Virus record (IMG/VR): IMGVR_UViG_3300005264_000010 | Coordinates: 1-64,000 of that record | Direction: 5' to 3' (one strand) | DNA from: a virus | DNA: 64,000 nt | Shown: positions 227-51,533 of the stretch, piece after piece | How the letters are laid out: each line of letters opens with the position of its first letter | How positions within the stretch are numbered: position 1 is the stretch's first letter | Notes under the pieces: model-generated | The model's database searches: none | What the model was told of the DNA's origin: nothing | What the model saw: only the letters and a program-made list of their open reading frames with translations | Translations under genes and position numbers: made by a program

Positions 227-307
227 TATTAAAGGGAATATGGTTCGCTACCTTTCAACTACCTTATTTAGTTGATAATTCCCTTTAATAATCTAATAAG
301 GAGATTA
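227..307 (+). ncRNA. Structured leader RNA A (three-way junction with anti-SD loop) upstream of endonuclease 310..1365
   Basis: P1 TATTAAAGGGAAT 227-239 pairs with ATTCCCTTTAATA 278-290. P2 is GGT-TCGCT-ACC. P3 TCAACTA/TAGTTGA has loop CCTTATT (262-268), complementary to AATAAGG (295-301), which overlaps the SD. Confidence 0.7.
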
Positions 308-309
308 GT

Positions 310-1365
310 ATGGAAAGAAAATTTAAGTGTGAATATTGTAATAAAGAATATAATAGCTCGACATATATAAGAACACATATATTACAAAAACACAAAGAAG
401 AGATAATATTTGACATAGCTAATAAATTACAATGTCAAGTTTGTGGATTAAAATTTAATAATAGTGATAATGAAAGAGATAATAAAATAGCTTTATCTAC
501 ACATATTAATAATAAGCATTGCTCAACTGAAGATTATAATTTAAAATATTATAATATTGAAAAGGAAGTTAGGGAAATTGAATGTGAGTTGTGTGGATTT
601 CTATCAAAGAGTAGTAGAGGATTAGGAAACCACCTATCATGTACTCATAATATAAAATGTAATAATCTAAATGTATTTATTTCTATATTAAATGGATATA
701 GAGATCATTGCTCTCCTAGTTGTGCAATGATAGATCCAAAAGTTAAAGATGAATATTTAAGAGTTCACGGTGTAAGTAATCCATTTCAAAGACGAGATGT
801 TATTGATAAAATATCAGATAATAAAAATAAAGATATTGACATAAACGGTCTAAATGGACACCAAAGAATTGGGAAGAAAAATAAAGAATGGGCTAATAAA
901 CAAACAGATGAATATTGGGAAGAAAAGATTGAAAGGAGTAGGAATACTTGTGTAGAAAGATATGGAGTTACTAATGCAATGCAAGATCCAGAAATTTCAG
1001 AAAGATGTAAAAAGAACTCTTATAAATGGAAAGAATATAAATTTCCATCAGGTAAAATTATAAAAGTTCAAGGATATGAAGATAAGGAATTAGATATATT
1101 ATTAGAAAGCTATGATGAGAATGAGATATTAAATAAGAGGTCTGAAGTTCCAGAAATATGGTATTATATGAAAGATGGAATGAAGAGAAGATACTTTCCA
1201 GATATGTATATAGAGAAAGATAATTTAATAATAGAAGTAAAATCAACATGGACAATAACGTTAGATAAAGAAAAAATAGAAGCAAAGAGAATGGCTTGCA
1301 TAGAAGCAGGTTATAATTTTAAGTTTATGATATTAGATAAGAAAGGTAAGATAGTAGATTTATAA
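310..1365 (+). CDS. Free-standing homing-endonuclease-like protein (C2H2/Zn fingers plus C-terminal PD-(D/E)XK nuclease)
   Basis: N-terminal CxxC...H..H fingers; C-terminal RYFPDMYIEKDNLIIEVKS; C-terminal domain closely similar to 50267..51436. Confidence 0.75.
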   Translation: MERKFKCEYCNKEYNSSTYIRTHILQKHKEEIIFDIANKLQCQVCGLKFNNSDNERDNKIALSTHINNKHCSTEDYNLKYYNIEKEVREIECELCGFLSKSSRGLGNHLSCTHNIKCNNLNVFISILNGYRDHCSPSCAMIDPKVKDEYLRVHGVSNPFQRRDVIDKISDNKNKDIDINGLNGHQRIGKKNKEWANKQTDEYWEEKIERSRNTCVERYGVTNAMQDPEISERCKKNSYKWKEYKFPSGKIIKVQGYEDKELDILLESYDENEILNKRSEVPEIWYYMKDGMKRRYFPDMYIEKDNLIIEVKSTWTITLDKEKIEAKRMACIEAGYNFKFMILDKKGKIVDL

Positions 1366-1396
1366 ATACAAATAAAATATAAATAGAGGTAATAAA

Positions 1397-1933
1397 ATGA
1401 TTGATATGAGTTTAAATACAATATCTCAAAAAATTGGGAACCCACTTAGGACAAATAGATTTTACGCAGACTTCCCCGCTTTCGATGGAAGTGGAATAGA
1501 GGAAGATGTAACATTTTTCTTGAACTCGATTTCGACACCCACAAAGACTATTGGGGAAATTAAGATCTTCTGGCAAGGTTTATCATTAAATGTGCCTGGA
1601 GATTGTACTTATTCGCCAATAACACTAACATTTATGACTGATGAGGCACTTTCAGCTTATAATTACTTTCAATTATGGCAATCTTTAGTAATTGATGACT
1701 TGACAAATTCAAGAGGTAAATTATCAGATGTTAAAAAAGGTATTGATTTACACCAATTAGCAGATAATGGAGCAGTTAAAGCAACTTGGTTTATGAATGG
1801 TATGTTTCCAACCGAAGTTGGTGAAGTTTCATTTGATAGAGAAGGTGCTGACACAGTAGGAACATTTACAGTAAATATGGCTTTTGATAATTTTACATTT
1901 AGTCAATCTAATGCTAGTAATATAATAGCTTAA
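1397..1933 (+). CDS. T4 gp19-like tail tube protein
   Basis: RTNRFY, TKTIGEIKI..G..L.VPGD.TYSPITLTF, FPTEVGEVSFD motifs; late promoter TATAAATA at 1361-1368. Confidence 0.85.
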   Translation: MIDMSLNTISQKIGNPLRTNRFYADFPAFDGSGIEEDVTFFLNSISTPTKTIGEIKIFWQGLSLNVPGDCTYSPITLTFMTDEALSAYNYFQLWQSLVIDDLTNSRGKLSDVKKGIDLHQLADNGAVKATWFMNGMFPTEVGEVSFDREGADTVGTFTVNMAFDNFTFSQSNASNIIA

Positions 1934-1944
1934 AGGAGATTATA

Positions 1945-2586
1945 ATGAGTTTACTTATAGAAGTAGCAAGTCCAGAATTTATCACATCTAGTAATTTGAT
2001 AAATGAATCGACTAAAGAAAAAGAATGGTTTATTGAAGGGATATATACTACTGCTGAAGAACAAAATAGAAATGGTAGAAAATATCCAAAACATATATTA
2101 GAAAGAGAAATTGCAAACTATAATAAAATGTTTGTTGAAACAAAAACTGCTTATGGGGAATTGTTACACCCACAAAGTTCAGAAATAAATACTGATAGAG
2201 TTTCACACTTGATTAAAGAATTGCATTGGGATGGAAATCATGTAATGGGAAAAGCAATTATATTAGATACTCCATCTGGACAAATAATTCAAGGAATGTT
2301 GAAAGGTGGTGGTGTTGTTGGTGTTAGTTCAAGAGCCCAAGGTTCAGTTAAAGGTGGTTATGTTCAAGAAGATTTATCTCTTAAATGCTGGGACATAGTT
2401 CTTAATCCTTCTAATTTAGGATCTATGATGAATATTATTAGAGAAGAAGAAGACCTACTATTAAAAGCTGGTGGAAATGAGCAATTGATAGATGTACTTA
2501 GGAAAGATATAAATACTAATAAGATAATGAGAAAACAATTCAACGAAGAAGTAATAAATAGATTTAAACAATTATTTACTAAATAA
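1945..2586 (+). CDS. Prohead protease (T4 gp21-like)
   Basis: IEGIY..AE..NRNGRKYP, GELLHP, VSHLI, DTPSG, GVSSRAQGS, WDIVLNPS motifs. Confidence 0.95.
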   Translation: MSLLIEVASPEFITSSNLINESTKEKEWFIEGIYTTAEEQNRNGRKYPKHILEREIANYNKMFVETKTAYGELLHPQSSEINTDRVSHLIKELHWDGNHVMGKAIILDTPSGQIIQGMLKGGGVVGVSSRAQGSVKGGYVQEDLSLKCWDIVLNPSNLGSMMNIIREEEDLLLKAGGNEQLIDVLRKDINTNKIMRKQFNEEVINRFKQLFTK

Positions 2587-2600
2587 AAGGATAAATAAAA

Positions 2601-2873
2601 ATAAAAACGATTAGAGAATTTGTAAATGAAGCACAGTATATAGATATTAATTACGCTTTAAAGGATATAAAAGATTACAATAGAAGTAGAAAAAGCGATA
2701 GTGATTGGAATGAATTAGCTCAAAGTGTAGTTAAAAACTTAGGATATAAACCTACAAAGAATAATATTGAGAATACTCAAGATCATCTAAGGTTTAGTAG
2801 CGATGATAATGGTGATGATAGAATAATTGTTGATAAAGATGTAGTTAGAGAATTGTATAGTATATTAAAATAA
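2601..2873 (+). CDS. Unannotated 90-aa ORF with ATA start and a capsid-targeting-like leader
   Basis: AAGGA SD followed by ATA AAA ACG ATT AGA GAA TTT GTA AAT GAA = (I/M)KTIREFVNEA; open to TAA at 2871-2873. Confidence 0.6.
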   Translation: MKTIREFVNEAQYIDINYALKDIKDYNRSRKSDSDWNELAQSVVKNLGYKPTKNNIENTQDHLRFSSDDNGDDRIIVDKDVVRELYSILK

Positions 2874-2893
2874 TGAAAATAAGGAAATTAGAA

Positions 2894-3157
2894 ATGAAAA
2901 CAATTAGAGAATTTATAAATGAAAGCGATTCTGTTGTATTAGTAGGAATTAATTCAATGAATCCATCTCATAGTAAGCAAGTTAAACAAATACAATCAGT
3001 ATTAAAATCATTTCCTGATACTGTATATGATAATGTGATTAAGAAGAGTAGTGGATCTTTTGTAAGTATAACTGTTAAAGATGAAATTAAAGCTAATCTT
3101 ATACAATATCTAAGAAATGTTAAAAATAAAGTAGATGGATGGGATATTTTATCATAA
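2894..3157 (+). CDS. Small putative internal head protein (MKTIREFINES...)
   Basis: True start is probably ATG 2894 after AAGGA; the leader resembles the T4 IP capsid-targeting sequence. Confidence 0.6.
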   Translation: MKTIREFINESDSVVLVGINSMNPSHSKQVKQIQSVLKSFPDTVYDNVIKKSSGSFVSITVKDEIKANLIQYLRNVKNKVDGWDILS

Positions 3158-3216
3158 ATATAAAAGGGTAGTAAATTAATCAATAAACAATAAAAAATAA
3201 ATAGGAGATCATTAAA

Positions 3217-3993
3217 ATGATTAAAACAGAATTGAAGGAATTACTTCAAAAACATGACTCTGAAATATTTACAGATGAACTTGTAGAAAGTGTAACAGAT
3301 GTGTTGCAAACTACAATTGACACTGAAGTAAATGAAAGAGTTAGAGTAATTCAAGATGAAAAAGAACAAGAAGTATCTGATTTAAAAGAATCAATAGAAG
3401 AAAAATCAATACAATTTGAGGATGTGAATGAAGAAAAGATGGAAAAAATAGTAAGCGCCCTTTCAAAAATGATGGATGAAACTATTGAAGAATTATTTGA
3501 ATCAAACAAAGTGGATTATGAAAATGTAGCTATTGTGAATGAAGCTATTGAAATTCATAAAACAAATAAACAATTAGCTGAAAAGTATCATATCTCAGTT
3601 GATGGTCTTGAAGAAGATATGTCATCTAAGAAAAAATTATCAGAAGCTAAAGAAATGTATAATGAGTTATATCAAGCACACGAAGAATTGAATGATAAAA
3701 TTGATACTTACTCACAAATACAGATTGTTAATAAAGTTACTGAAGGAATGACATCTATTCAAAAAGATGACTTACTATCTTTAACTAGTTCTTTAAATGA
3801 AAGTGATATTACATCTTTCGAAGAGAAAGTTGAAAATATTAAGAAAGTAATTTTAAAGGAAAGTAACGAAAGACCAGTTAGAAGATTAAATGAAACAGAA
3901 GTAGATGATATCAATACATTAAATGAAGATGTAGATGAAGAAACTGATGTAAGTAAGAAAGTAAAAACATATAATATGTTTGGACCTAAATAA
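3217..3993 (+). CDS. Prohead core scaffold protein (gp22-like)
   Basis: Acidic coiled-coil between gp21 and gp23; many L/I-x-E sites; VTEGMTSIQKD motif. Confidence 0.8.
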   Translation: MIKTELKELLQKHDSEIFTDELVESVTDVLQTTIDTEVNERVRVIQDEKEQEVSDLKESIEEKSIQFEDVNEEKMEKIVSALSKMMDETIEELFESNKVDYENVAIVNEAIEIHKTNKQLAEKYHISVDGLEEDMSSKKKLSEAKEMYNELYQAHEELNDKIDTYSQIQIVNKVTEGMTSIQKDDLLSLTSSLNESDITSFEEKVENIKKVILKESNERPVRRLNETEVDDINTLNEDVDEETDVSKKVKTYNMFGPK

Positions 3994-4040
3994 TTTATAA
4001 ATAATAAATAACAACAAAAATAATATGGAGAATCATAAAA

Positions 4041-5245
4041 ATGATTACAAATGCAAACACAAACACAGATAAAGTTTTAGAGTATAAAACTGAATCTATG
4101 AGATTGTTAGAGGCTCATACAGAAATAATTGAATCTCAACATTACTCAAAATTAGATGAAAAAATGAAAGCACCTACTGCTTTTTTAATTGAAAATACTG
4201 AAACTTGGTTAAATGAAGATGCTAACTTACATGGTGATTTACAGTATTACAAAGAAATGTTAGTACCTATAGTTATATTAAAGTTGCTGCCGGTGGTGGT
4301 AATGATCTTGCAAAGATTGTTTTTAAAGAGCAAACTACAGGTGGAATGAAACTATTAGTTAAGATTGAAGATGGTGAAGCTTTACCTGCAACTGGAACTG
4401 TATGGGTTACTGGACCAAATGCTGATTTAGAAATGACTAATATTTGGAATAACGAATTAGGTAGAAGTGTTATTTTATCTACTTATGGTGGTCCGATGTC
4501 GACATCTGAAGGTGAATTACTAAATGACTGGCAAACAGTTAAATTATCACTTGAAGCTGTTAATATTACTGCTATTTCTCACAAGTTAGCTTTTGAACTT
4601 TCACAAGAAACAATTACTGATCTTGCAAGAAGAACTGGCGATGATGCAAAGAAGAGATTAGTTGGTGCAATTAACTGGCAATTAGCAATGACTGTTAATA
4701 GAAAGTTATTTAATTTGATTTCAAGCTCAGCTGAAACTGGAAGTGAGTGGTTATATTCTGGAGCTGATGGTAGAATGGAATCTGAGAAGCTATTAGGTCT
4801 TAGAAGAAAGATTAAATGGGAACAAAATAGAATTGGTGTTAAGACACAAAAAGGTAGAGCAAATTATGGTATCGTTACACCTGCTGTTGGTACTGTATTA
4901 GAAATGCAGCCTGGATTCGCTAAAAATATTGCTGATGAAGGTGGAGATCAAGCTGGTATTATTAAGATTGGATCTTTAGATGGAATTACTTATTACCAAA
5001 CTACTATGGATGGTGAAGCTGGTGATTTTGTTATACTTGGTTATAAAGGTGCTGAAGAGCATGAGAGTGGAGTTTTTTATTGTCCTATGGTACCATTGTT
5101 AGTTAGTAAAGCTAATGACTTTGATAATCCAGAAAGACAGAAAGTTGCTTTCTCTCAAAGAGCTGGTTATACTCCAAATCCTTATGGAGCGGAAAGATAC
5201 ATCACTTACTTCGATGTGACTCTCACTGGATCAAGTATTAAGTAG
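4041..5245 (+). CDS. Major capsid protein (gp23-like), interrupted by an apparent deletion/frameshift near 4271-4274
   Basis: ORFs 4041..4349 and 4346..5245 are gp23 halves (TAFLIENTE; SQETITDL; GRANYGIVTP; GYKG..E.ESGVFYCPMVP). The conserved RR..P.LIA.D..GVQP..GPTG block is missing. Confidence 0.85.
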
Positions 5246-5278
5246 TAAATAACTTATAATATTAAGTTATAGTATATT

Positions 5279-5315
5279 AAAAAGACTTCAATTAGAAATG
5301 ATTGAAGTCTTTTTT
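5279..5315 (+). terminator. Rho-independent terminator after the capsid gene
   Basis: AAAAAGACTTCAATT-AGAAAT-GATTGAAGTCTTTTTT. Confidence 0.85.
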
Positions 5316-6330: not shown

Positions 6331-6384
6331 TATATAAATATAAATACAAATACAAATACAAATAAAAACTAAACAAGGATTTAT

Positions 6385-9300
6385 ATGTCTACATTAAAAG
6401 ATTTTCTAAGAGTTAATATCAATGAACATTCATTATTTGATGATAATGATAGTAAAGAAGTAACAGAGTTCCTAAATGATAAAAAACTAATACTAGATAC
6501 TTTCTATATTAATTTTATTGGTTTTTTATCTTTACTTCAAATGGATCATCACGAGAAAGTAACTCAATATTTCAAAAAAGATAAAAAATTACAAATTAGG
6601 AGTATAACATCTGAAAATAATGATATTAGTTATATACTAAAAATTATTAGTGATAAAGGATATTTTACTACTAGATCAATTACTCAAATAACTAAATTAT
6701 TATTTATGATTAAGAGTGGTAAGATAAAAGATGTTGATGAGAATAAGATAAGAGATATACTACAATTTTTAAAAATTGATCAACATAAACCTAATGCTAA
6801 AATTAAAACTATTGTATCTAAATTTATATCTAGTGAGGAAACAATACTACTAACTTCTCTTAATTTATATAAATATGCTAGGAAGAATAAGATTTCTATT
6901 GAGTTCACAGATATATTTAGAAAAACTGCTAAATTTAAAAATGTAGATCTTGATGCTATAGATCTTGATGATAAGAAAAGTAAGGATGTTGATACTACTA
7001 TAAATATTCCTGATAAAGCTGATGATAGTATTGTTGATGTAGGAGTTACTAAACCAAAAAAGAAACTTAGTAAAAAAGCCCAAATACAAGCAGAAATAGA
7101 TGATGAAGATTTACCTACACTTAATGGTAGTATGACTTATGATACTAAAGAAAGATATCAAATACTTAAAAGTATATTAGGTAAGAGCGATAATTATAGA
7201 AAATCTATAATGAAGTTATATGCACTAAAGAAAGAAGATTTTACTACTGAATATTTTGAAGAGTTCTATAGAGATAGAATTAAATTAACAAAAAGTGATT
7301 TAGATATACTTAATAAAATATATGCTAAGAAGAATTCATATTGGTATATTAAGTATTATATTATTTTCACCAGTAATTCATTTGCTCAAGATAAAGAAGC
7401 CCATGATAAACTATCAACTAAACAATTAGATGTATATAATATGAGTATTAGTTATGAGACAGGTAAATATTATAGAAAAGGATACCAATTTTCTTCAGAT
7501 ATTAGTGTTAATAATGATATTAGAGAAAGAATATATGAGAAACTAAAAAATGAAAATTCTTCAGATTATTATAAGTTTATGACAGATTGGGGTTTATTAC
7601 AGAAATATATAGTTGATAAAATTAATAGTAATTCATCTTGGGATGATGCTATCTTATTTATTAGTATGGGTATGCTGTTGAGTAATTATATTCAATCATA
7701 TGGGTATGCCACTTTAAGTAATGAAGAAGAAAATCTAATAAACTATATATCTGATCATGCACCTCAGTTATTAATAAAAACTTCATATAAAAATAAAATA
7801 AAAGATATCTCAATTTTCACAATAGATGAATTTGTAGATTTCTTATTTGGTAAGGACTATGATCAAAATCAATTGCCTGTGGATATGATTGAAGTAAATA
7901 AAACTAACTATACATGGGATATTATATTTGAAATATATAACGGTAGAGATATAGTTGTTAATAAAATAGTAAAAAAGTATGTGCAAACTTACTATAATAG
8001 TCTTAAAATTAATTCTTTTTTGGAAAAATTTGATTGGAAATTTGATAATGAGTTTTTAAAGGATGGTAATAAAGGAGTAAATCTAGAAAATATAGATATA
8101 ATCTTATCATCTGAAAAATATACTAATGTACTTGACTGTGAGTTATGGATAGATAGATTAAGTGAATCTAATTCTAGAAATAAAATAAATATTTTAAAAG
8201 AATATATTATACAAAAGAAACTTCATCTAATAGTAGATAAATTTAGTAGGGATATGTACTTGAGTAGTTTTATTTATGAATTAGGAGAGATAGAAGTAAA
8301 TAAATACTATAGTAATATTGAGCTATTAGAATTATTTCAAAAATTTGAAGATTTTGGATTATATGAATTAGAAAAATTACTTACACTCCTATTATATACT
8401 GATGATGACGTTATTGATGATAAAGAATGTAATATAATATATAACTGGGATATGGTAAAAGACTCCTACAATAGTAATAATATATTTAATTATGCTGGCT
8501 ATATTACAAACAAAAGTCTAATTTATTATATTAATAAAAAATTAGAAGATAAGATAGATGATGTTGAAAATAATGATTATATTAAGAATCTTTTCTTTCT
8601 TCGATATTTAGTAGATGAAGGTAAATCTGAAAAGGCTTTAGAAATTTTTCACAAATATATAATTACTATTGAAGCTATGTATTATTTGCATGAATTTAAA
8701 TTAGAATTTATTTTTAGTGTTGATATAATAAAAAATGATAAAAAAGTGAGTGATTGGATAGAAAAAGGTATTCGTGATTGGATATCAAGTGGGAGTATAT
8801 ACTCAATAAATCATGATGTATTAATTAAAGAAAAATTTGATATTATTAAAGAAGAATTCCTAAAAATTATTAATCCTGATTCTAGTGAACTAACTATAAG
8901 TATGGATAAATCCGATCTAGATATATTTATTAGTGTAGTAGAAAATAATAAAGAGAAATTCTCTGATGATGAGCTTAATTTATTATTTTCTAATCCTAGA
9001 ATATTTAAAGAAATTCGCAATAATGCAACTTTTGAAAATTTACTGAAAGAAGGTATATCAATAAGGGAAGATATTAAAATCCAGAAAAAAGATTTTGATG
9101 CTATGTTAAAATTTAATAATATTGATATTAATACTAGATTATTAAGAAAAAAGAAGAATGAAAAACCGCTAGATTATCTTGCTAGAAGTTCAAAGGTTAC
9201 TGATATTAAATTACCAGATGTACAAATTGATGAGGTTGAAGAAACTGAAGCTGAAAGGATGACACAATCATATAAACTATATGATAAATATCATTCTCAT

Positions 9301-10080: not shown

Positions 10081-10096
10081 TATATTTTCCTATATT

Positions 10097-10132
10097 AAAA
10101 CCTCAATTAGAAATAATTGAGGTTTTTTTTTA
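10097..10132 (+). terminator. Rho-independent terminator
   Basis: AAAACCTCAATT-AGAAAT-AATTGAGGTTTTTTTT. Confidence 0.85.
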
Positions 10133-10150
10133 TTATATTTAAAATAAAGC

Positions 10151-10207
10151 TTGACATTATTAAGTTTTATACTTATATTGTAGTTGTAGGTTAATTTAAA
10201 AGGAGAA
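10151..10207 (+). promoter_or_regulatory. Representative early (sigma70-type) promoter/RBS cassette
   Basis: TTGACA-N17-TATATT then GTAGTTGTAGGTTAATTTAAAAGGAGAA. Equivalent promoters on + at 5404, 14876, 17711, 20781, 24890, 29047 and on - at 38642, 41082, 44477, 53201, 56569, 63015. Confidence 0.85.
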
Positions 10208-10212
10208 CAAAA

Positions 10213-10686
10213 ATGAAAAATATTAGAGAATTTATAACTGAAAGTGGAATGACTGAAAAGAAAATGATAGATACTATCATTAAAGAGATTAAACCAGTTT
10301 ATGATAAATGGAGAGATGAATATTTTGATTATCTAATAGCTAGAAAAGAATTAAAAAGAAATGATTATAAAGAGTATGAAAGAACTTGGGTAAGAAGTGA
10401 GCATAATATTTTATTATCAAATGATAAAGGTATGAAAGAAAAATTAGTAATAATTTTTGATAAAAAATTAGTTGATGTTAGTAAAGCAATTCATAAGAAG
10501 ATTGTGAATGCTAAGATAGGTAAAGTTTTTAAAATAGAAAGAGTTAAAGATAGTCATAATGATTTAGATTTTTATATAAATGATGCTTTTAAATTATCAA
10601 TTAGAACAATAGTTGCTAATGGATATGTTCAAGTAACTCATTATAGAGTTATAACTACAATCACAAAAATAAATATGGAGAAGTAA
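10213..10686 (+). CDS. Hypothetical protein with capsid-targeting-like leader (MKNIREFITES)
   Basis: Leader motif; strong SD; directly behind an early promoter. Confidence 0.55.
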   Translation: MKNIREFITESGMTEKKMIDTIIKEIKPVYDKWRDEYFDYLIARKELKRNDYKEYERTWVRSEHNILLSNDKGMKEKLVIIFDKKLVDVSKAIHKKIVNAKIGKVFKIERVKDSHNDLDFYINDAFKLSIRTIVANGYVQVTHYRVITTITKINMEK

Positions 10687-24805: not shown

Positions 24806-25100
24806 ATTAAAATAGCTTTAATTATAGTTTGTATTATAAAGAGTTAGGTGTGATTCCCTAACTCTTTTTTATTTATATAAACTTTTTTCTTGACATTATT
24901 AAATTTTATACTTATATTACTATTGTTAATTTAAAGGAGAAATAAATTATGAATGAAAATATTATTAAGTATGAATTGAAAAGTTATAGAATAGCTACTG
25001 TTGTTGGCGGTTTAATAGAACAGCCAGAAATACGATATGAAGATTATGATACTATAGAAGCCACAAATGAGAAAGAAGCACTAGAAATATATAATAAAAA

Positions 25101-28192: not shown

Positions 28193-28290
28193 ACCAGCAG
28201 TATTTCAAACTAAAGGTGATTAAGAGAAATTTTAATCACCTTTTTATATTTTTATAAATATAAATAAAATATATTTATGGAGATATAAAA

Positions 28291-29040
28291 ATGAAGTTTA
28301 AATCAATTAATAATAGAGTAGAATTAACATCTTATATAAGACGTCAACTTGGTGGAGAGAGTCACGATTTAGAACTAAGTGATGATAATATTTCGGATGC
28401 AATTGATGATAGTATCGAAGTGTTTCTTGAAAAAGCTTATGATGGAAGTGATGAAGGATTTATAGAATTAGATTTAGTTGAAGGACAAACACTATATAAC
28501 ATTGGAACAATAAATAATAATATAATGGCAGTTTTAGATATATTATCATCTGGATATGGATTAAATAGTTCTAATCAAGTAGCTACCCAACAATATTTTG
28601 GTGAAGCATTTTCTGGATTATATTCAGGTAATGGTGGCGGTATGTTAGATTATGCTTTAACTCAAAATTTTATCAATTCAATGGAAGATATAATCAAAAA
28701 TGAAATATTATATAATTTTAATACAACAACTATGATGTTACAATTATATTCTAAACCTAAAACTAGTAAAAAAGTATTATTAAATGTTATTACTAGTGCT
28801 GGTGAAGATGTAACTAATTTTGATACTTTATATGGACATAGATTTATTAAGGAATATGCAGTTGCTAAGACATTTATTACTTGGGGTATTAATATTTCGA
28901 AATATTCTGGATCACTATTTGATGGAAACTTAGAGTTGAATGGTGAATTATTATTGAATGAAGGTAAAGAAAGATTAGAGAAAGCTGAAAATATGCTTCG
29001 TGAAGAATATCAAGATTCATTCGGATTAATTTATAAATAA
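28291..29040 (+). CDS. Neck protein (T4 gp13-like)
   Basis: ELTSYIRRQLGG...EL, IKEYAVA..WG.NISKYSG..DG..ELNG; late promoter at 28253. Confidence 0.85.
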   Translation: MKFKSINNRVELTSYIRRQLGGESHDLELSDDNISDAIDDSIEVFLEKAYDGSDEGFIELDLVEGQTLYNIGTINNNIMAVLDILSSGYGLNSSNQVATQQYFGEAFSGLYSGNGGGMLDYALTQNFINSMEDIIKNEILYNFNTTTMMLQLYSKPKTSKKVLLNVITSAGEDVTNFDTLYGHRFIKEYAVAKTFITWGINISKYSGSLFDGNLELNGELLLNEGKERLEKAENMLREEYQDSFGLIYK

Positions 29041-29095
29041 TTTCTCTTGACATTATTATGATTTGTTATTATATTACTATTAAAGGAGAAATAAA

Positions 29096-29677
29096 ATGAA
29101 AACTATAAGAGATTTTATAGATAAACCAATAAATGAATCGCCTGCTAATGCTCACCCAGATGTTGATATTATAGTTAATGATAATTTAACTAAAGTTATA
29201 ATAAAAGCATTTAAAAATGATAATGTTTATGAAACTAATAATCCTAATATATATAAATGTGCTGGACATAGTGTGGGATATATGATATATATGATAATTA
29301 AAGACGATAGTGTTATTGGTGCTACATCAATATTTAGTAGTAATCTTAAACATAGCTATAGAGGTAAAACTAAATATATATGTTATCCTAAAATATCTAA
29401 AAAATATAATGATAAAGAAAAAGGTATATTATTCCAATTATATAGACATATTCAATTTAATGAAAATTTATATATTATGGGAGATGGTAAGCAAACTGAT
29501 GATAGTAAACAAGTTTGGTTGCATTGGCTTACTAATGATGTTGATTATATTAAAGATTGGTTTATATATGATACTAAGACTAAAGAAGCTAAAGCATTCA
29601 CTCTTAAAAAATTACATAAATACTGGAGTAATAATCTGAATTTTAGTAGATATAGACCATTAGTAATATTTGAATAG
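29096..29677 (+). CDS. Hypothetical protein with capsid-targeting-like leader (MKTIRDF...INES), possible GNAT-like fold
   Basis: Leader motif; KGILFQLY and GD.KQTDDSKQVW motifs. Confidence 0.5.
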   Translation: MKTIRDFIDKPINESPANAHPDVDIIVNDNLTKVIIKAFKNDNVYETNNPNIYKCAGHSVGYMIYMIIKDDSVIGATSIFSSNLKHSYRGKTKYICYPKISKKYNDKEKGILFQLYRHIQFNENLYIMGDGKQTDDSKQVWLHWLTNDVDYIKDWFIYDTKTKEAKAFTLKKLHKYWSNNLNFSRYRPLVIFE

Positions 29678-35678: not shown

Positions 35679-36845
35679 TATGTCAAGTATTCTTTTACAG
35701 TAATTTTTCAATCCAAATCTTTCGATTTGATTAGTTTCATATTCACTAATACCAATAACTGAAGAGTTGAATATTTGAAATATATAATTTCTATATTCTT
35801 TAGGAACTACTTCATTGACTTTAATTGCAAATTCTTTCTTATCAGTTATAAATAAATTACTCATTTCTAATTGATAATTCATAGCTCTAATTTTATAATC
35901 TATATATCTTTTCTTAATTTCTTCAACTTCATCTTTATAATGTGGAAAATATCCTAATACTTCATCAACTTCATTATTAATAATTAACATCAATATACTA
36001 ACATTATTATTCACTCTACCTAACATTCTATGCAATTCAATATATCTTGGACTTTTAACTTTTACTCTAGTATAACTTCTAGTTTCATCATTAAATTTAG
36101 AATAATCAACAGCAACATAGCCTTCAAATGTTGCTTCATTCTCAGTATGTAATTTTTCAATATCCTTTATACTATAAACATCATAAATATCTTTAGCATA
36201 AGGAATACCGATTTCATGAGATATTGCTTGTAACATTTTATAACTTACTTCATCAAAATTATCACATCTATCCCTAGCAGTGATTAACGTAAGAGTAGTC
36301 TCAGAATATGGAGTTACTATTCTATTATTTGGTGATGTCAATTCAAATATATATATTAGTTGATCATCAAAATAATTTATAACTAATTTATCATGAAGTG
36401 TATGTGTATCTAACTTCTTATTAGGTAAAGCATCTAATACTAAATCAGTAAATGTCTTATCACTATTTTCACTTGGTTTAGCTACATTATCAATTGAACC
36501 AGATGTTGCAATTCTCCATTGACATTTATACTGAAAAATAGTGATTAAACTACCATCCATTTTCTCAAATATATTAGCATTATAGAAATCAAAATCATTG
36601 TCTTCTTCAATTTCCCCAAAATTAAAGAATCTATTAAATCCCATAGAAACTATATCAAAAGTACCCATCTCTAATATAAGTGATCTACATTCTCTAACAA
36701 TTGGATGTGATTTATGTTTATGTGAATCTATTTGTGAATATTTTAATAATACTAAATCATCTTTAATTTTATAATTAATACCAAATTCATTTTTTAAATC
36801 ATCTAATGTATTATTTTGAAGATATTCCTGGGTTTTTAATAGCAT
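35670..36845 (-). CDS. RNA ligase 1 (T4 RnlA-like)
   Basis: ECRSLIL, FNRFFN.GE, EKMDGS, FELTSPNNRIV, EGYV, RVKVKS. Confidence 0.9.
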   Translation of the reverse strand: MLLKTQEYLQNNTLDDLKNEFGINYKIKDDLVLLKYSQIDSHKHKSHPIVRECRSLILEMGTFDIVSMGFNRFFNFGEIEEDNDFDFYNANIFEKMDGSLITIFQYKCQWRIATSGSIDNVAKPSENSDKTFTDLVLDALPNKKLDTHTLHDKLVINYFDDQLIYIFELTSPNNRIVTPYSETTLTLITARDRCDNFDEVSYKMLQAISHEIGIPYAKDIYDVYSIKDIEKLHTENEATFEGYVAVDYSKFNDETRSYTRVKVKSPRYIELHRMLGRVNNNVSILMLIINNEVDEVLGYFPHYKDEVEEIKKRYIDYKIRAMNYQLEMSNLFITDKKEFAIKVNEVVPKEYRNYIFQIFNSSVIGISEYETNQIERFGLKNYCKRILDILY

Positions 36846-37779
36846 TTAGTTTCTCCTCTAATATTCCCTCTATATTATCAAATTCTATATAAGGTATTCT
36901 AATTAGTTTGATATTATTGTTTTTACAATATTCATTTTTTGTTTTATCATTAATCTGAGTTTGTTTAAAATTATTTTCTGCTTTCCCTTCAGATATATTA
37001 TTAAACTGCACTGGATAGAAATGCTGTTGTCCATCATATTCTATAATAATATTATATTTAGATAAATAGAAATCAAATAGTAGTGATCTTTTTGACTCAA
37101 CATTTCTACAACCATCAAATACTTTTTCTCGAACAAAATTTATATTGTTCTCTTCTAACCAAATTCTAACTGTATATTCACCTTTTGACTCTTTAGATGA
37201 ACAAACTTTACATCTAGTTTGTCCAGCTTTAAATCTGCTAAAACTGGCACTGAAAATTCTTTTACATTTACACTCAATGTCTAAAAATTTTTTAATTCCA
37301 GTGTATTCTAAAGATATTAATTTACACCCCATATTACATATTGTTTCTTTAACATATTTATATGAATATGTTTGAGCTGTGTTCTTTTCTCCTACACTAC
37401 ACTTATTACACTTATATTTTTTCCTACCTTTGAATTTAGCCCAAGTAGTTTCAAATATATTATTACATTCAATAGTTTCACAAGTGAAAATTAAATTTGT
37501 TGAATTATTAATATATTCTGTTGATAGACATTTACAATTTGAATGTGTCTCTGTATATTCTATTATTTTCTCAATAGTTAATCTGCCTAAACCAGAACAT
37601 TCATTACATTGATGTTTGCTTCCTTTAAATTCCATAAAACTTTTATTAAAAAATTCACCACAATGGCACTTAAATATTAGTTTTTCTTTGATACCATTAT
37701 ATTCTGTTGATATTAAGGTGCATTTAGTGTGAGCTTCTACAAAATCATTTACATCTTGGATTGTTATTAGCTTTGGCAT
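36811..37779 (-). CDS. Free-standing homing-endonuclease-like protein (three Zn-binding repeats plus Vsr-like nuclease)
   Basis: Three repeats of the type LISTEY....KL.FKC.C..F...F.....C..C; LFDFYLSKYNIIIEYDGQQHF...KNEYC...IKLIRIPY. Confidence 0.8.
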   Translation of the reverse strand: MPKLITIQDVNDFVEAHTKCTLISTEYNGIKEKLIFKCHCGEFFNKSFMEFKGSKHQCNECSGLGRLTIEKIIEYTETHSNCKCLSTEYINNSTNLIFTCETIECNNIFETTWAKFKGRKKYKCNKCSVGEKNTAQTYSYKYVKETICNMGCKLISLEYTGIKKFLDIECKCKRIFSASFSRFKAGQTRCKVCSSKESKGEYTVRIWLEENNINFVREKVFDGCRNVESKRSLLFDFYLSKYNIIIEYDGQQHFYPVQFNNISEGKAENNFKQTQINDKTKNEYCKNNNIKLIRIPYIEFDNIEGILEEKLNAIKNPGISSK

Positions 37780-37788
37780 ATTAAATTT

Positions 37789-37900
37789 CCTGTTTAGTTT
37801 ATAGTTTTAGTTATATGTATTTATAAAACTATTATAGGGTGTAAGTATATTTAAACAGGAAATATACTTTACAAGGGTAACTAGTCCTTTACACCCTATA
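37789..37900 (-). ncRNA. Structured leader RNA C upstream of endonuclease 36811..37779
   Basis: Minus strand: P1 TATAGGGTGT/ACACCCTATA; P2 AAGG-ACTAGTTAC-CCTT; P3 AAGTATATTT/AAATATACTT with loop CCTGTTT complementary to AAACAGG at the SD (37789-37795). Confidence 0.7.
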
Positions 37901-37979
37901 TAATTGATATTATACCATAATCTTCTTCAAGTTCAATTAAAGTATGATTCTGTAAGTATTCTTGCACTTTTAATAACAT
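37896..37979 (-). pseudogene. Orphaned duplicate 5' end of RNA ligase 1
   Basis: Encodes MLLKVQEYLQNHTLIELEEDYGI(ISII*), versus the intact gene start MLLKTQEYLQNNTLDDLKNEFGI. Confidence 0.85.
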
Positions 37980-46487: not shown

Positions 46488-46567
46488 AATTTAAGTAAAT
46501 ACGAATATGATGTGGAGTGGTTACCCATCATAAGAAAAGGGCAACTCGTCCTATTTCTCCTCCAAAG

Positions 46568-46606
46568 GAAATGGCTAATAACAAATTTAATGTTATTAGC
46601 CATTTC
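46568..46606. terminator. Long hairpin/terminator between convergent units
   Basis: GAAATGGCTAATAACA...TGTTATTAGCCATTTC inverted repeat. Confidence 0.7.
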
Positions 46607-46615
46607 TGATTTAGC

Positions 46616-46690
46616 TTCATAAGTAGTGTTTAATTCGATTTCTTATCAAAGATACATAATTATATAGAAAACAATTTAAAGTTGAAGTAA
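46616..46690 (+). repeat. Dispersed non-coding element, copy 3
   Basis: TTCATAAGTAGTGTTTAA...AGATACATAATTATATAGAA...AATTTAAAGTTGAAGTAA, shared with 29778-29852. Confidence 0.8.
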
Positions 46691-47154
46691 GCTAACTGTT
46701 TGACACTTTAAAATGAATATTACTTATTATGCTTCTTCTTATTCAAATGATAAACTATAAATCCTCCAAAAAATACTACACATGATACTATAAATCCTAT
46801 TGTACTTGGTTCCATTACATCTCCTTTAATTTATATTTTTCTATAAAATATTCTAAATAACTAATATCTAAATTTATGAACAAGAAATAATCTATTCTTT
46901 TACTCATTGTAGAAAATCCAGTTTCAATATAATCCCTATTACCATACTCTGGAGTAAATGGCATCACCCTATGAATAAAAACAGTATGACAACTTTTATA
47001 TTCATACATATCTAGTATTTCTTCATATGATATACTAGCAGATTCTCTACTAAATGATTTTGAACAATCTAATTTATCAATTTTAACTTCATAAGATTTA
47101 TCTTTAGCATCATTGAATAATTTAATCATATCAGCATTTTTTATATCGTAGAAT

Positions 47155-47577
47155 TTATGAGACATTGTTATCTTCTATGTTAGTTATGTACTCTTCAATT
47201 TCTTCTTCTTCAAAACCTGTCCAAGTCATTTCCCAAAGACAGTGAGTAATTATATCCAATTCAGAATAATCAATAAGCGAATTTTCTGTTAGCTCCATAC
47301 CTAACCATTCATTCCATTTTGTATATTCAATAGCATAACCAATTTCTTCACCTTCAATTAAACCACTAACTGATGTATATTCTTCTTCATTCCATTTACT
47401 AATTGAGACTAGAAATATATCTAAAAGCATACTTGAATTGACTGGTTCCATAACTTTCAGTTTATTAAATACATGTTCATAACCATCAATATTAATATCT
47501 TGATCTGGATATAATACTAACATTCTAGTTTTTATCTCTTGAAAATTATATTTTAGTATTAGTTCTTTAAATTTCAT
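47155..47577 (-). CDS. Conserved hypothetical protein (DUF6557-like)
   Basis: W.EWLGME...II.HCLWEMTW.GF.E motif. Confidence 0.55.
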   Translation of the reverse strand: MKFKELILKYNFQEIKTRMLVLYPDQDINIDGYEHVFNKLKVMEPVNSSMLLDIFLVSISKWNEEEYTSVSGLIEGEEIGYAIEYTKWNEWLGMELTENSLIDYSELDIITHCLWEMTWTGFEEEEIEEYITNIEDNNVS

Positions 47578-47622
47578 TTGTTACTCCAGAAATTTTATTA
47601 AATAAATCTTTAGCTTACTTTG

Positions 47623-48864
47623 TTATATTACAATTTCAAAAATTGTTTTTCCTACGTGACATTTATCTTCACTTTTAGCATTATATGCTTCTAAATGTTC
47701 ATCTATATCATAACCAACAATATCACCAGTTTCTTGTAAATCAATTTTATATGAATCAATCCCATCTTTACTTACAATATGTATATTCTGTGAAGCTCTT
47801 GAAGTTAATTGTAAACTATTTTCAGAATAAGCATTTGCACCAACTAAACTACCCGATCTCGCATAAGTTTCTGAGATGAGTGCCTGGTGGATATGCCCAA
47901 AAATTACAAAATCTATTCTTATTCCTCTACTTGAATACTTTCTAATTGATTTAGTGACTCCATTTTCAGGATTAGCACTATATCCTTTTTGGTGACCATG
48001 TAATAATAGTATATTTTTACCTCCAATATTAATAACATCTTCTAATGGAGTATCTGGTTCTTTAAATGTTACACTATCACTTTCTTTGAATATGAATTTT
48101 AGGAAATTAAAGATTGTCCAATCAAAATTATCTGTAGTAATGACATCAACCCATCCAATATCATCATCCATACGGCTTTCGTTTCCAGTTACAGCAGTTA
48201 CAACTATATTATAATCTTCATTTAACTCTGATATTACTTGTTGTAAAAGTTGAACAGCTAAGAAAGTTGCTTTTGATCTATTAGTTGCTTGTGATAATAA
48301 TTCGTCAAGACGACGCGACGAGTTCATCAAATCTCCACCCAAAGTTACCAGCACAGTTGAAATATTTCTCAATGAAAATTGTTCTTTTGATTTAATAACC
48401 ATTTTCTTTAATCTCTTCGATGCGACACTAAATGAATATTTATTGCTTGGAAGGTCAACCAATTCATTAAAATGGGAATCAAAAATTGAAAATATCGCCA
48501 CTGAATCATCATTTATACTTTCATGTCTAATGGTATTCTTTACTATATTATTCTCTTTAAGTATATTAATTAGTTCTTTGCTATACTCCTCAACTGCATT
48601 CTCGATCCTCGCTTGCTCTCTGAAACTTTTTCTTTCTACCCGATTTTTATCCTGAAACTTCTGCTTCTGTTTAGCTAACCTAACATTCTCAGCAACTATT
48701 TCTTCATCTGGATCTACTTCAACGACAACCTCGTTTTCTTCATCTAAAAATACACTAAACTTTCTTTCACAATCTTTACATTTATATACTTGGTTAGTTC
48801 CTTTTGAATTATAACTGAAACCGTATTTGTTTACTTCTAATGATTCACATCTTGGACAATTCAA
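47623..48864 (-). CDS. Calcineurin-like metallophosphoesterase with an N-terminal Zn ribbon
   Basis: DSHFNE, GGDL, GNE, HGH, GHIH motifs; CPRC...YKCKDC ribbon; late promoter at 48891-48898 (-). Confidence 0.75.
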   Translation of the reverse strand: MNCPRCESLEVNKYGFSYNSKGTNQVYKCKDCERKFSVFLDEENEVVVEVDPDEEIVAENVRLAKQKQKFQDKNRVERKSFREQARIENAVEEYSKELINILKENNIVKNTIRHESINDDSVAIFSIFDSHFNELVDLPSNKYSFSVASKRLKKMVIKSKEQFSLRNISTVLVTLGGDLMNSSRRLDELLSQATNRSKATFLAVQLLQQVISELNEDYNIVVTAVTGNESRMDDDIGWVDVITTDNFDWTIFNFLKFIFKESDSVTFKEPDTPLEDVINIGGKNILLLHGHQKGYSANPENGVTKSIRKYSSRGIRIDFVIFGHIHQALISETYARSGSLVGANAYSENSLQLTSRASQNIHIVSKDGIDSYKIDLQETGDIVGYDIDEHLEAYNAKSEDKCHVGKTIFEIVI

Positions 48865-50266
48865 TATGTTCTCCTTATATTAATTAAAAATATTTATAAA
48901 CTATTTAATTTTAATATCCACACTCAAAACATCGAGTAAAAGAAAACTAACTATCTCGTTTTTATCTTCAACTGTCACGCTATCATTACTTATAATCATA
49001 GTGCAATTTTCATAAATAAAGAACTCTACACAACTATTTATTTTAACTTCTACAATTACTGATTTAATCATTATAAATTTCTCCTATAATTTTTAATATT
49101 GAATTATCAACATTGTTCCACTCTCTACCATAATTTTCTGGTGGGTATAATTTCATACTACATTCATTTCCATTGGTGTCTGTAATAATAAATAAAGGAG
49201 ATTTCTCAATACCATATATCTTATCTAATACTAAATTACCAATATTAACTTCTTGTGTATACTCTTCATAAATATCAGTATCAGTAGTAAAAGTACACAT
49301 ACCATCTATTTCACCACTTGGGAATAATTTAACACTACAATAACTACCCCAAATTTCTAATACCTCATATTCATAACTAGTATTATTTTTACTATGCACT
49401 ATATCACCTACTTTAAATGACATCATTATCCTCCATTATGTAAATTATAATTATAAACAATAGTGAAACAAATATTAATTCTAAACTCATATCTACATCC
49501 CATTATCTTCTATTTGCTGTTTTCTTAATTTATCCATATCAAGTGAATATTTCTTTTCATTAGTAGAATTATTTTCACTATACTCATGAATTGCTATTAG
49601 TTCTTGCCTACAATATGAACACTTAAATCTTACAACCCTATCATTAATATCTTCTTGAACTTGAGTATGGCAAGTAGGACAAACATAAGATGTTTTAATA
49701 ACTGTTATTAATTTCTCTATTATATAGACTTCTTTGGCTCGCTTAGTTACTTTCATTTTATTAACTCCATTGAAATATCCTTTAAATATTTACTATTCTT
49801 AATAAATTCTTCACAAAATCTTCTATATTTACATTGCCCACATCCCATATGCTTTAAATCGCTCATATATTCACTACAATGATTTATCATATTTATTAAT
49901 TTATCATTTGATGATCTGTCTACTTTATGAACTTCACTAATCATTTACTTCTCCATTATATTCTTTTCCATCAATTTTAAAATCTTTTTTATTTAACGCT
50001 TTTGAACAATAACTTTCACAATCTTCACAAACTAAATTTTGCTCTATTAAATCTTTAATCATTTGGAATCTTAAATACTGATAATATTTATCACAAAATG
50101 AACATTGCTCAACTTGATCAAATCTCAAGTGTTTACAATCTTCTGAGCAATATAACATTATGTATTTAGAAAATTCTGGACTATCAACTATTATTGCTTT
50201 AATATCTTCTGTTTCAAAAGTTTTAGTTTTCATTTAATTCACCTTTAATATAATATAACTATTTGA

Positions 50267-51436
50267 TTACAAATCTACTACACTACTCTTTCCATCTAGT
50301 ATCATAAACTTAAAATTATATCCTGCTTCTATACAAGCTTTTTGTTTAAGTAAATTAATTTCGTTATATTTGTTATAAGTCCATAAACTCTTTACTTCTA
50401 TTATCAGATTATCTTTTTCTATATAAATATCAGGATAATATCTATGCTTCTTTTCATCTTCTGTATAATACCATATACTAGGTATTTTCTTTCTCGATAC
50501 TTCTATTTCATCTTCATGATAGCTTTCTAATAATATATCTAATGCTTGCGGTTCATATCCTTGAACTTTAACTATTTTATTAGATGGAAATTTATATTCT
50601 TTCCACTTAAATCCAGATTTTTGATTTTTCTCATGAAACTCAGGAACTTGCATTGAATTATCAACTCCATACTTTAAATTCATAGTTTCTATATATGATA
50701 CTTTCCATCTGTCATAACTATTTAATCCATTTTCATCTATATTATTAAGTTTTGTTTCTCTATTCTTTTCTGGATTATTATAATTTTTGTCTTCATATAA
50801 ATCTTCTTTGGTTTTCATTGATTTAATGACAATTCTATCATAACTATTTAATCCATTTTCATCAATATCTTCTAATTTAGTTTTAACTATTTGCGATGGA
50901 TTATTATAATTTTTATCTCCATATAAATCTAGTTTAGTTTCAATGGCTTGCTCTCTATTCACAAAGAACTCATCTCCATATAAATCTAGTTTAGTTGATT
51001 TACATTTTATTAATGCTTTATCATGAGAGTTCATTCCCATTTCATCTACTTCTAGCTTAGTTTTATTTGCTTGTTTTGAATTATTATAATTTTCATCATT
51101 ATATCTATCCTTTTTAGTTTTATTAGATTTCTCTCTGTTATTATAATTTTGATCTCCATATTTTTCTAATAAATTCTTTTTAGTTTTATCTATTTTTTCT
51201 TTATTTGAATTCGAGCATTTTGAATCACAATATGTTCTATATCCTTTACTGAATCCCCTAAAATTAGTTTCTTTACTACAGCTTTTACAAGTACCCTCTC
51301 CAGCTTTCTTAAAATTTTCATCATAATATTCTTGAGATGTCATTTTATGAAATTTTTTAAGGTGTATTGCTAAAATATTGAGTTTATGACAATTTTCATT
51401 GCATATAATACAAGTAGTATCTGTAGGTGTGCTCAT
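50267..51436 (-). CDS. Free-standing homing-endonuclease-like protein, paralog of 310..1365
   Basis: Zn finger, repeated YGD.NYNN and IDENGLNSYDR modules, RYYPDIYIEKDNLIIEVKS nuclease. Confidence 0.75.
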   Translation of the reverse strand: MSTPTDTTCIICNENCHKLNILAIHLKKFHKMTSQEYYDENFKKAGEGTCKSCSKETNFRGFSKGYRTYCDSKCSNSNKEKIDKTKKNLLEKYGDQNYNNREKSNKTKKDRYNDENYNNSKQANKTKLEVDEMGMNSHDKALIKCKSTKLDLYGDEFFVNREQAIETKLDLYGDKNYNNPSQIVKTKLEDIDENGLNSYDRIVIKSMKTKEDLYEDKNYNNPEKNRETKLNNIDENGLNSYDRWKVSYIETMNLKYGVDNSMQVPEFHEKNQKSGFKWKEYKFPSNKIVKVQGYEPQALDILLESYHEDEIEVSRKKIPSIWYYTEDEKKHRYYPDIYIEKDNLIIEVKSLWTYNKYNEINLLKQKACIEAGYNFKFMILDGKSSVVDL

Positions 51437-51439
51437 AAT

Positions 51440-51533
51440 AATCTCCTTACGATTTATGAATATAATATTGAAGAGAAGGTAATCTAACCTTGTAAGGAAA
51501 GATTAGAAGGTTAATTAGACCTGTCCCTTCTCT
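51440..51533 (-). ncRNA. Structured leader RNA B upstream of endonuclease 50267..51436
   Basis: Minus strand: P1 AGAGAAGG/CCTTCTCT; P2 AGGT-CTAATTA-ACCT; P3 TCTAATCTT/AAGGTTAGA with loop TCCTTAC complementary to GTAAGGA at the SD (51444-51450); TATAAATA just upstream. Confidence 0.7.

Follow-up and report, generated by a model that had tools for sequence, protein, structure and literature searches.

The window analysed here, the first 64 kb of the 73,784-bp IMG/VR phage record IMGVR_UViG_3300005264_000010, contains three nuclease genes (A, B and C), and each is preceded by an RNA leader that folds into a three-way junction (3WJ). The junction is made up of a closing stem (P1) and two hairpins (P2 and P3), and the loop of P3 (L3) is complementary to the translation initiation region of the gene that follows. 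In total, 42 distinct elements of this kind were identified, including the three in the window and one in a cultured phage, with the others coming from uncultured phages. The family travels with free-standing and intron-borne homing-endonuclease genes, is widespread and is absent from Rfam. Judged from sequence, it is a real cis-regulatory RNA family that would be analogous in function to the known control of homing endonucleases while being distinct in architecture. Its role is probably that of a portable, cis-acting translational repressor of nuclease genes that operates through a loop–loop kiss between L3 and the ribosome-binding site (RBS).

Structure of the three leaders in the window

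The original prediction had placed a shared architecture ahead of three endonuclease genes, and the minimum free energy (MFE) fold produced by RNAfold was a closed 3WJ at all three positions. The MFE was −20.3 kcal/mol for copy A (bases 227–290, z −5.7), −21.5 kcal/mol for copy B (37900–37832, z −3.2) and −20.3 kcal/mol for copy C (51535–51470, z −2.6). Measured against every 72-nt window of the contig (mean −6.3, standard deviation 3.6), the three copies belong to the top ~0.5%. They were the only compact closed 3WJs found on the contig in an energy scan, at ~−0.32 kcal/nt, and the genes that they precede are the only three nuclease genes recognised on it. The P3 proposed for copy C, with 8 bp and a 7-nt loop, matches the family consensus, but the MFE fold favours an alternative P3 of 6 bp plus 3 bp. 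The coordinates of the features are listed in Table 1.

In each copy, L3 was found to be the exact complement of a heptamer at the RBS of its own gene, as had been claimed (CCTTATT/AATAAGG in copy A, CCTGTTT/AAACAGG in copy B and TCCTTAC/GTAAGGA in copy C), and each of these RBS heptamers is present in just 2 of 120 RBS windows on the contig. A complement of at least 7 nt covering the core of the Shine–Dalgarno (SD) sequence was found within 200 nt upstream of 8 of 119 genes, and these include all three nuclease genes. Copies A, B and C all combine the two features by which the family is recognised, an L3 complementary to the gene's own initiation region and a nuclease gene downstream. The predicted duplex is 7 bp in copy A (−5.0 kcal/mol). 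In copy B the complementarity covers 12 nt (37863–37852 with 37796–37785) and extends into the P3 stem, with a duplex energy of −13.0 kcal/mol. The loop/SD duplex of copy C has an energy of −7.6 kcal/mol, and an extended 6+6 complement can also be read there (UAAUCU uu CCUUAC with GUAAGG AGAUUA). The RBS heptamer is itself the loop of a small hairpin (P4) in copies A (TAATCT..AGATTA) and C (AATC..GATT), rather than in copies A and B as originally described.

The three copies had also been described as having little shared primary sequence, and this was only partly the case. The conserved junction core of the family is absent from copies A and B, but copy C has it (GAC ... UUA), and covariance models built from copy A alone or from members in other phages rank window copies near the top.

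Table 1. Coordinates of the leaders, promoter boxes and nuclease genes in the window
Feature	Coordinates	Strand	Details
Copy A late promoter box	219–226	+	TATAAATA
Copy A 3WJ	227–290	+	P1 227–239/278–290 (13 bp); P2 242–244/250–252; P3 255–261/269–275; L3 262–268 CCUUAUU
Copy A P4 hairpin and AUG	289–312	+	UAAUCU/AGAUUA; SD heptamer AAUAAGG 295–301 in loop; AUG 310–312
Nuclease A	310–1365	+	351 aa; C2H2 zinc finger and DUF7487, TnsA-like PD-(D/E)XK end; Pfam PF24308 (E 5.7e-40), PF13894, PF08722
Nuclease B	36811–37779	−	322 aa; repeated zinc-ribbon-like N-terminus, PD-(D/E)XK-like C-terminus (FDFYL..IEYDGQQH)
Copy B RBS region and AUG	37777–37796	−	UAAACAGGAAAU 37796–37785; AUG 37779–37777
Copy B late promoter box	37818–37825	−	TATAAATA; between junction and RBS
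Copy B 3WJ	37833–37900	−	P1 10–11 bp; P2 AAGG/CCUU with palindromic loop ACUAGU; P3 9–10 bp; L3 37859–37853 CCUGUUU
Nuclease C	50267–51436	−	389 aa; DUF7487
Copy C P4 hairpin and AUG	51434–51454	−	AAUC/GAUU; SD heptamer GUAAGGA 51450–51444 in loop; AUG 51436–51434
Copy C 3WJ	51472–51533	−	P1 51533–51526/51479–51472 (8 bp); J12 GAC; P2 AGGU/ACCU with palindromic loop UAAUUA; P3 51506–51499/51491–51484; L3 51498–51492 UCCUUAC; J31 AUUA
Copy C late promoter boxes	51538–51551	−	Two overlapping boxes (TATAAATATAAATA), upstream of junction

Homologous leaders in other phages

Alignment of the three copies by MAFFT did not reflect their structure, and covariance models were bootstrapped instead, with R1 built from copy A alone, R2 from three foreign members and R3 from eight members, all from other phages. 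A permissive base-pair descriptor scan of the 26% GC contig returned mostly AT-rich noise and was replaced by energy-based scans. The first search, an energy-based scan of 235 loci with B-type or DUF7487 homologues, revealed four further junctions directly 5′ of nuclease open reading frames (ORFs), with the L3/own RBS combinations CCTCTC/GAGAGG, CTCCCA/TGGGAG, CCTATT/AATAGG and CCTGAA/TTCAGG. A core common to these four junctions and copy C is P1-GAC-AG(P2)...UU-GA(P3)...UC-UAA-P1′. A search that was blind to gene content consisted of two sequence-pattern scans of IMG/VR filtered by covariance models, and it yielded additional members. Covariance-model scans of four whole phage records added three more copies, and the genes downstream of these also read as nucleases. 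The cultured member was found in Enterocloster phage CB457P1 (OP172753.1) at ~8649–8719, ahead of an I-TevI-like GIY-YIG gene.

Over the 128 kb searched with R3, copy A ranked second (17.1 bits, E 0.076) and copy C third (16.2 bits, E 0.13), both weak scores, and copy B was not found. Copy B was the best non-self match of R1 (15.8 bits) and is otherwise tied to the family by its architecture; we regard it as a divergent family variant. R2 with default filters recovered only its own training sequences. The top R3 match, at 58817–58867 on the minus strand, lies inside a DnaB-like gene and folds at merely −4.4 kcal/mol, and was taken as chance. A match in Escherichia phage A4 was rejected as an RBS look-alike in a 60-nt gap.

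The helices of the junction covary in two alignments, which agrees with the claim of a conserved RNA structure. In alignment A9, which contains eight sequences, all from outside the window, pairing extends to 94.1% of cells and 14 of 22 pairs are changed on both sides; none of 500 shuffles reached the observed value and slid controls pair at ~47%. In alignment A10, made from 28 distinct sequences of a second scan, 91.1% of cells are paired (99% in P3) and 18 of the 22 pairs are compensatory. The compensatory changes include G.U pairs, which are strand-specific, with GU found in 26 of 28 sequences at the second P2 pair in A10. Both the R3 consensus and the per-pair tables reveal junction nucleotides that are far more conserved than the helices. 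The form of the junction in the family is P1, a J12 that is usually GAC, a P2 opening with A-U and G.U, a P3 opening with G-C and A-U, and a J31 that is usually UAA.

The loop/RBS pairing also appears to be under selection, as it covaries in two separate homologue sets. In the first set (15 members), L3 matched its own region over a mean of 5.9 nt compared with 3.9 nt for cross pairings, and none of 20,000 permutations gave a value as high. The second set (27 new members) gave means of 5.7 and 4.1 nt, respectively, and again no permutation out of 20,000 was as high. The matched site ends 4–10 nt before the AUG in 13 of the 15 first-set members, the position usual for an SD sequence. The two outliers are L245, whose exact 7-nt register stops 2 nt short of the AUG, and CB457P1, whose site is 20 nt before it, directly 5′ of the SD yet within the P4 loop. 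The matched site covers the start codon itself in several second-set members. When read by eye, members without a long spacer between junction and RBS have the matched site in the loop of a 3–6-bp hairpin. Predicted kiss energies range from −4 to −9 kcal/mol, with the 12-mer of copy B at −13 kcal/mol.

A subclass of members (L251, L254, L255, L265, L271 and L279), found mostly before GIY-YIG and HNH genes, has a spacer of 50–75 nt between the junction and the RBS. The spacer contains a TATAAT-like box, a conserved hairpin (AGACUU..AAGUCU or AGAGUU..GACUCU) and then UAAAAG. This suggests there may be a second promoter or processing site in the spacer, as in copy B.

Chance, or the paralogy of the leaders of A and C, in an AT-rich genome that makes any CCU loop resemble an anti-SD sequence is of negligible probability as an explanation, being refuted by the covariation together with the permutation tests. 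Genes A and C are indeed paralogous, and the permissive descriptor scan did give many spurious junctions. Against this, the window copies are energy outliers, the gene behind copy B is unrelated, and ~40 homologues with compensatory changes are found in other phages.

The downstream genes look like nucleases in all 15 members of the first set (11 from Pfam or PHROGs matches, CB457P1 from its GenBank annotation, and L264, L265 and L266 from a reading of their own sequence). In the second set, 13 of the 20 ORFs tested with Pfam carry nuclease or nuclease-associated domains (DUF7487, DUF559, DUF723/DUF4379, GIY-YIG, HNH, HNH_3, His-Me finger and NUMOD3/4). Two others have only a CapR-homology N-terminal domain and were counted as B-type since nuclease B and its relatives open with this sequence pattern too, one has a weak, below-cut-off endonuclease I-like match, three have no informative match and one is ThyX. 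The nucleases served by the leader belong to three unrelated catalytic folds, PD-(D/E)XK, GIY-YIG and HNH/His-Me, in line with the view that the element tracks gene function and not one protein lineage.

The carriers include phages with T4-type late promoters, a Firmicute phage and phages apparently reading TGA as Trp. Several nuclease ORFs are open only if TGA encodes Trp (L236:1625–2911, L208:297–1511, L245:6351–7706, L264:1575–2840, L286:841–1812, L299:9261–11171 and L290:71–970), and L236 has TGA where L199 has W in LKLWIKEN. The phages behind these ORFs probably use code 4. Members at L292 and L272 lie within phage tRNA gene clusters (12 and 4 tRNA matches in the loci, respectively). Such clusters are the classic home of free-standing nucleases, T4 segB being one example. 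The promoter-plus-P1 start of copy A (TATAAATATATTAAAG) recurs ahead of a B-type nuclease in another phage (L078), and because of this recurrence the leader may be suspected of moving with, or between, nuclease cassettes.

Proposed mode of action and alternatives

Either the T4-type late promoter box TATAAATA or a TATAAT-like −10 box was found 5–8 nt 5′ of P1 in most members inspected. Because a promoter-like box lies this close, the fold is probably the 5′ end of the nuclease mRNA, with a transcript start at the P1 base predicted from the T4 spacing rule. For copy A, the transcript is predicted to start at ~232, inside the 5′ strand of P1, and this would leave an 8-bp P1 flush with the 5′ end, since T4 late promoters have their box centred at −10. 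From the comparative evidence we infer not only the transcript ends but also repression of the gene and stabilisation of its mRNA. Folding of the junction would come first, after which the SD would be offered to L3 by P4. A rigid 3WJ would position P3 such that L3 pairs with the gene's own initiation region, either the SD or, in some members, the start codon, which would usually be displayed in the loop of P4. The resulting 6–8-bp kiss would hide the RBS and keep a potentially harmful nuclease poorly translated, and the flush 5′-terminal P1 stem probably also protects the poorly translated mRNA. The leader would in this way be a constitutive brake on translation. Late transcripts of copy B would lack the anti-RBS because the promoter box sits between the junction and the RBS, so that copy B may add a T4-style temporal relief in which silencing affects read-through transcripts and leaves late ones free.

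Several observations weigh against repression by a loop–loop kiss. Fitting to the model biases the covariation alignments towards the modelled structure, although an artefact of this kind is unlikely because of the effect size and the slid controls. The opposite strand folds about equally well, and energy alone leaves a role at the DNA level possible. Copy B has neither the conserved junction nor a clean P4 and was missed by R3. The kisses predicted for copy A (−5.0 kcal/mol) and L208 (−4.1 kcal/mol) are weak, and ~10 of the 27 second-set members have less than 6 nt of complementarity, partly from uncertain start codons. In copies A and C the late promoter is upstream, and all transcripts should carry the repressor, in which case the nuclease might be made by leaky translation or after some form of relief. 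One member (L288:1865–1935, minus strand, 28.8 bits) precedes thyX, which is not a nuclease gene. Its L3 (UGACA) can pair with the region of the thyX start codon (AUGUCA), and this leader may have been either co-opted or left behind as the remnant of a lost nuclease cassette. Finally, the conserved junction core suggests more than a passive scaffold.

The loop of P2 (L2) is also of interest in this respect. Six-nucleotide palindromes (UGAUCA, UUGCAA, UGGCCA, UAAUUA and ACUAGU) occupy L2 in 11 of the 42 members, compared with 3.7 ± 1.5 expected, and none of 2000 shuffles was as high. They are found in copy B (ACUAGU, 37881–37886), copy C (UAAUUA, 51512–51517) and nine other members, and dimerisation of the RNA through a palindromic L2 is possible. 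Another subclass has GNRA-unlike tetraloops (UGCC, GACG) in L2. The conserved core and the excess of palindromes sit poorly with a purely passive brake and hint at a further level of control, for example by a partner or dimerisation, although this reading lies somewhere between unlikely and doubtful.

The original prediction offered a more elaborate translational switch as one reading. Nothing in the analysis points to autoregulation, a ligand or a protein partner, and the transcripts of copies A and C should all carry the fold. We consider it rather unlikely that the leader is a regulated switch in which either the junction core (GAC / UU-GA / UAA) recognises a protein or small ligand or L2 dimerises the RNA, with the L3/RBS kiss opened or locked as a result. 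Such a switch would account for junction nucleotides far more conserved than the helices and for the excess of L2 palindromes, and in copies B and C the complementarity extends into the P3 stem, which would permit two exclusive states. However, copies A and B keep the architecture without the conserved junction, most members lack a palindromic L2, no linked partner gene was found and there is no match to a riboswitch family. The great diversity of the hosts, from phages with T4-type late promoters to a Firmicute phage and phages with TGA as Trp, also speaks against a host-specific partner. Doubtful, but conceivable from the sequences, is a host-independent portable controller, carried and swapped by unrelated selfish nucleases, that is a true switch. 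Its core and L2, the latter in about a quarter of the members, would sense RNA concentration, a protein or a metabolite, and the kiss would be freed only when DNA cutting benefits the element.

Another alternative is that the leader is mainly an mRNA stability or processing element. The 5′ stem would block 5′-end-dependent RNases and the L3/SD pairing would shield a GGAG-type site from RegB-like endoribonucleases, so that expression is protected or favoured. Protection by a 5′ stem-loop and RegB cleavage at GGAG are known from T4. In copy A, L236 and L078, the promoter box 5–8 nt before P1 would leave P1 flush with the 5′ end, and the junction is expected on all transcripts of copies A and C. 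We find this explanation unlikely. Stability could be had without a loop that changes together with the initiation region of each gene, several members have L3 on the start codon and not on GGAG, and the family is also found in a Firmicute phage, where RNase E and RegB do not apply. A stability role is compatible with translational repression as a second role of the leader.

A part in the mobility machinery, either as a guide or cofactor RNA or as a DNA-level structure (a cruciform, or a recombination or homing-site mimic) that marks the border of the cassette, is very improbable. The element is always at the 5′ border of the nuclease cassette, the orphaned start of the RNA ligase 1 (Rnl1) gene runs straight into P1 in copy B, and the two strands fold about equally well, all of which would suit such a role. 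However, the same RNA is found with nucleases of three unrelated folds that have their own DNA-binding domains, the compensatory G.U pairs are strand-specific and the orientation of the element to the gene is constant. The sole variable 'address' is 5–8 nt long, and what it matches is the RBS of its own gene, on the same strand. The earlier suggestion of an RNA cofactor or guide for the nuclease fails on the same grounds. The leader differs from omega-RNA-like guides in that its variable segment is complementary to the initiation region of its own gene, and DNA-binding modules (zinc fingers, NUMOD3/4) are already part of the nucleases.

A search of the full-text literature found no published description of the junction leader and the family appears to be undescribed, though a catalogue of ~10,000 candidate phage RNAs from 2023 (PMC10690425) might hold it unnamed. 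The window had no matches at gathering score in Rfam 15, which upholds the earlier view that the leader belongs to no known RNA family, and the member loci gave only chance-level matches to miRNA or CRISPR-repeat families. Membership of the int-alpA family (RF02996, gathering score 35.8 bits) was rejected by covariance-model search: five records holding 12 members, the window contig included, gave no match at E ≤ 10, and the family was also absent from the E-value scans of member loci and the gathering-score scan of the window.

The junction is also not a part of a group I intron (RF00028), as the window has no intron match and the intron core in CB457P1 ends before the junction. The core in CB457P1 (locus L267) is complete (93.6 bits) and lies at L267:1423–1754, with the junction at L267:1787–1857. 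This core sits between coding sequence (CDS) 00009 and the junction leader with its I-TevI-like gene, a stretch for which the record has no annotated intron or RNA. It may be that CDS 00009 and 00011 are exons of a single gene.

To our knowledge, translational control of homing endonucleases has so far been known only as gene-specific hairpins in T-even phages. The T-even genes for I-TevI, I-TevII, I-TevIII, segB and Aeh1 mobE are silenced translationally by RBS-sequestering structures tied to the position of the promoter (PMC2988022). The leader would share with these hairpins the use of a cis-acting mRNA structure to occlude the SD of a homing-endonuclease gene, and the RBS of copies A, B and C can each pair exactly with an upstream segment of the same transcript (7, 12 and 7 nt, respectively). 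Copy B also has the T-even layout, with the anti-RBS upstream and a late promoter between it and the RBS. Unlike in the T-even scheme, the late box of copies A (219–226) and C (51551–51538) is upstream, and the late mRNA would keep the structure. The T-even structure is a simple, gene-specific local hairpin that contains the RBS, whereas here the RBS is in the P4 loop and would pair with the P3 loop of a conserved, covarying 3WJ that is common to three nuclease folds across many phage lineages.

Loop interactions that control translation initiation are also known from the IncI-alpha/IncB repZ pseudoknot and from CopA/CopT kissing, which act in trans (antisense RNA) or activate. As in those systems, a hairpin-loop contact of 6–8 nt with the initiation region would set the rate of translation; unlike them, the leader is intramolecular, probably repressive and built on a 3WJ. 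The purine riboswitch is ~65–70 nt long, with a P1 closing two hairpins, a conserved junction and an L2–L3 kiss inside the aptamer. The leader resembles it in architecture only, in its length of ~65–70 nt, its P1 with two hairpins, its conserved junction and its loop–loop contact. It differs in that L3 kisses an RBS hairpin outside the junction, that the junction is not conserved in copies A and B and that no ligand or Rfam match was found.

The phage contig and its nuclease cassettes

The contig has a GC content of 25.8% and is ~30% complete according to CheckV. A comparison of sequencing runs found the phage DNA best represented in a marine-sediment metagenome, and no RNA run was listed as containing it. 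T4-like parts on the contig include a gp19-type tail tube, RNA ligases 1 and 2 and a Dda-like helicase. Neither megablast and tblastn against cultured phages nor Rnl1-based scans of IMG/VR and metagenome contigs revealed a close relative of the phage, and contigs from four DNA sequencing runs held no usable variation in the leaders. The late promoter box TATAAATA has 58 copies on the contig, 29 of them within the 7% that is non-coding (7-fold intergenic enrichment), and typically lies 15–40 nt ahead of the start codon. A longer late-promoter motif, TTTATAAATATAAATAAAAT, is repeated ahead of late genes, for example at 28253, 31736, 34972, 41102 and 51538.

Nucleases A and C are paralogues with 50% identity across the C-terminal 208 aa, and nuclease B is unrelated to nuclease A. 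Nuclease B has no Pfam match and matches the PHROGs phrog_559 (E 2.5e-56) and phrog_9084 'homing endonuclease', with PHROG annotations of homing or HNH endonuclease. No GIY-YIG or HNH_3 genes were found on the contig. The closest DUF7487 proteins are P0004–P0013, of which P0006 and P0013 are two paralogues reported on one 172,769-bp contig.

Nuclease cassette B (36770–37979, minus strand) is inserted within the 5′ end of the Rnl1 gene. An orphan ORF of 27 codons (37979–37896; MLLKVQEYLQNHTLIELEEDYGIISII followed by a stop) repeats the first ~23 codons of the intact Rnl1, which starts at 36845 (MLLKTQEYLQNNTLDDLKNEFGI...), and stops within P1 of copy B. Between the ORF of nuclease B and the new Rnl1 start there is an overlap of 35 nt. 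The cassette seems to have brought along a substitute for the 5′ end of the gene that it targets. A group I intron was ruled out here, since there is no intron match, Rnl1 starts anew with an RBS of its own and a full N-terminus, and there are no sensible splice sites.

Other structures were noted in the same contig. At 29036–29100, 24880–24953 and 10085–10217 on the plus strand, a short anti-SD run (UUUCUCUU, UUUUCC) lies directly 5′ of the sigma-70-like promoter (TTGACA..TATATT) of several ordinary genes, and the MFE fold pairs this run with the downstream AAAGGAGAAA RBS. This arrangement would silence read-through transcripts and spare those initiated at the promoter, and looks like a genome-wide habit of insulation. 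Long hairpins or palindromes of very high stability (−22 to −28 kcal/mol per 72 nt) at 46537–46608, 63681–63752 and contig positions 73153–73224 are unrelated to the junction family, and some of them look like bidirectional terminators.

The leader is a testable RNA of ~100 nt with obvious compensatory mutants, for which Enterocloster phage CB457P1 offers a cultured system, and it could be used as an annotation marker for free-standing nuclease cassettes and their 5′ borders. Homing-endonuclease genes need enough expression to spread without harming the phage that carries them. The presence of one covarying RNA family across PD-(D/E)XK, GIY-YIG and HNH nucleases points to a common, transferable solution to this problem.

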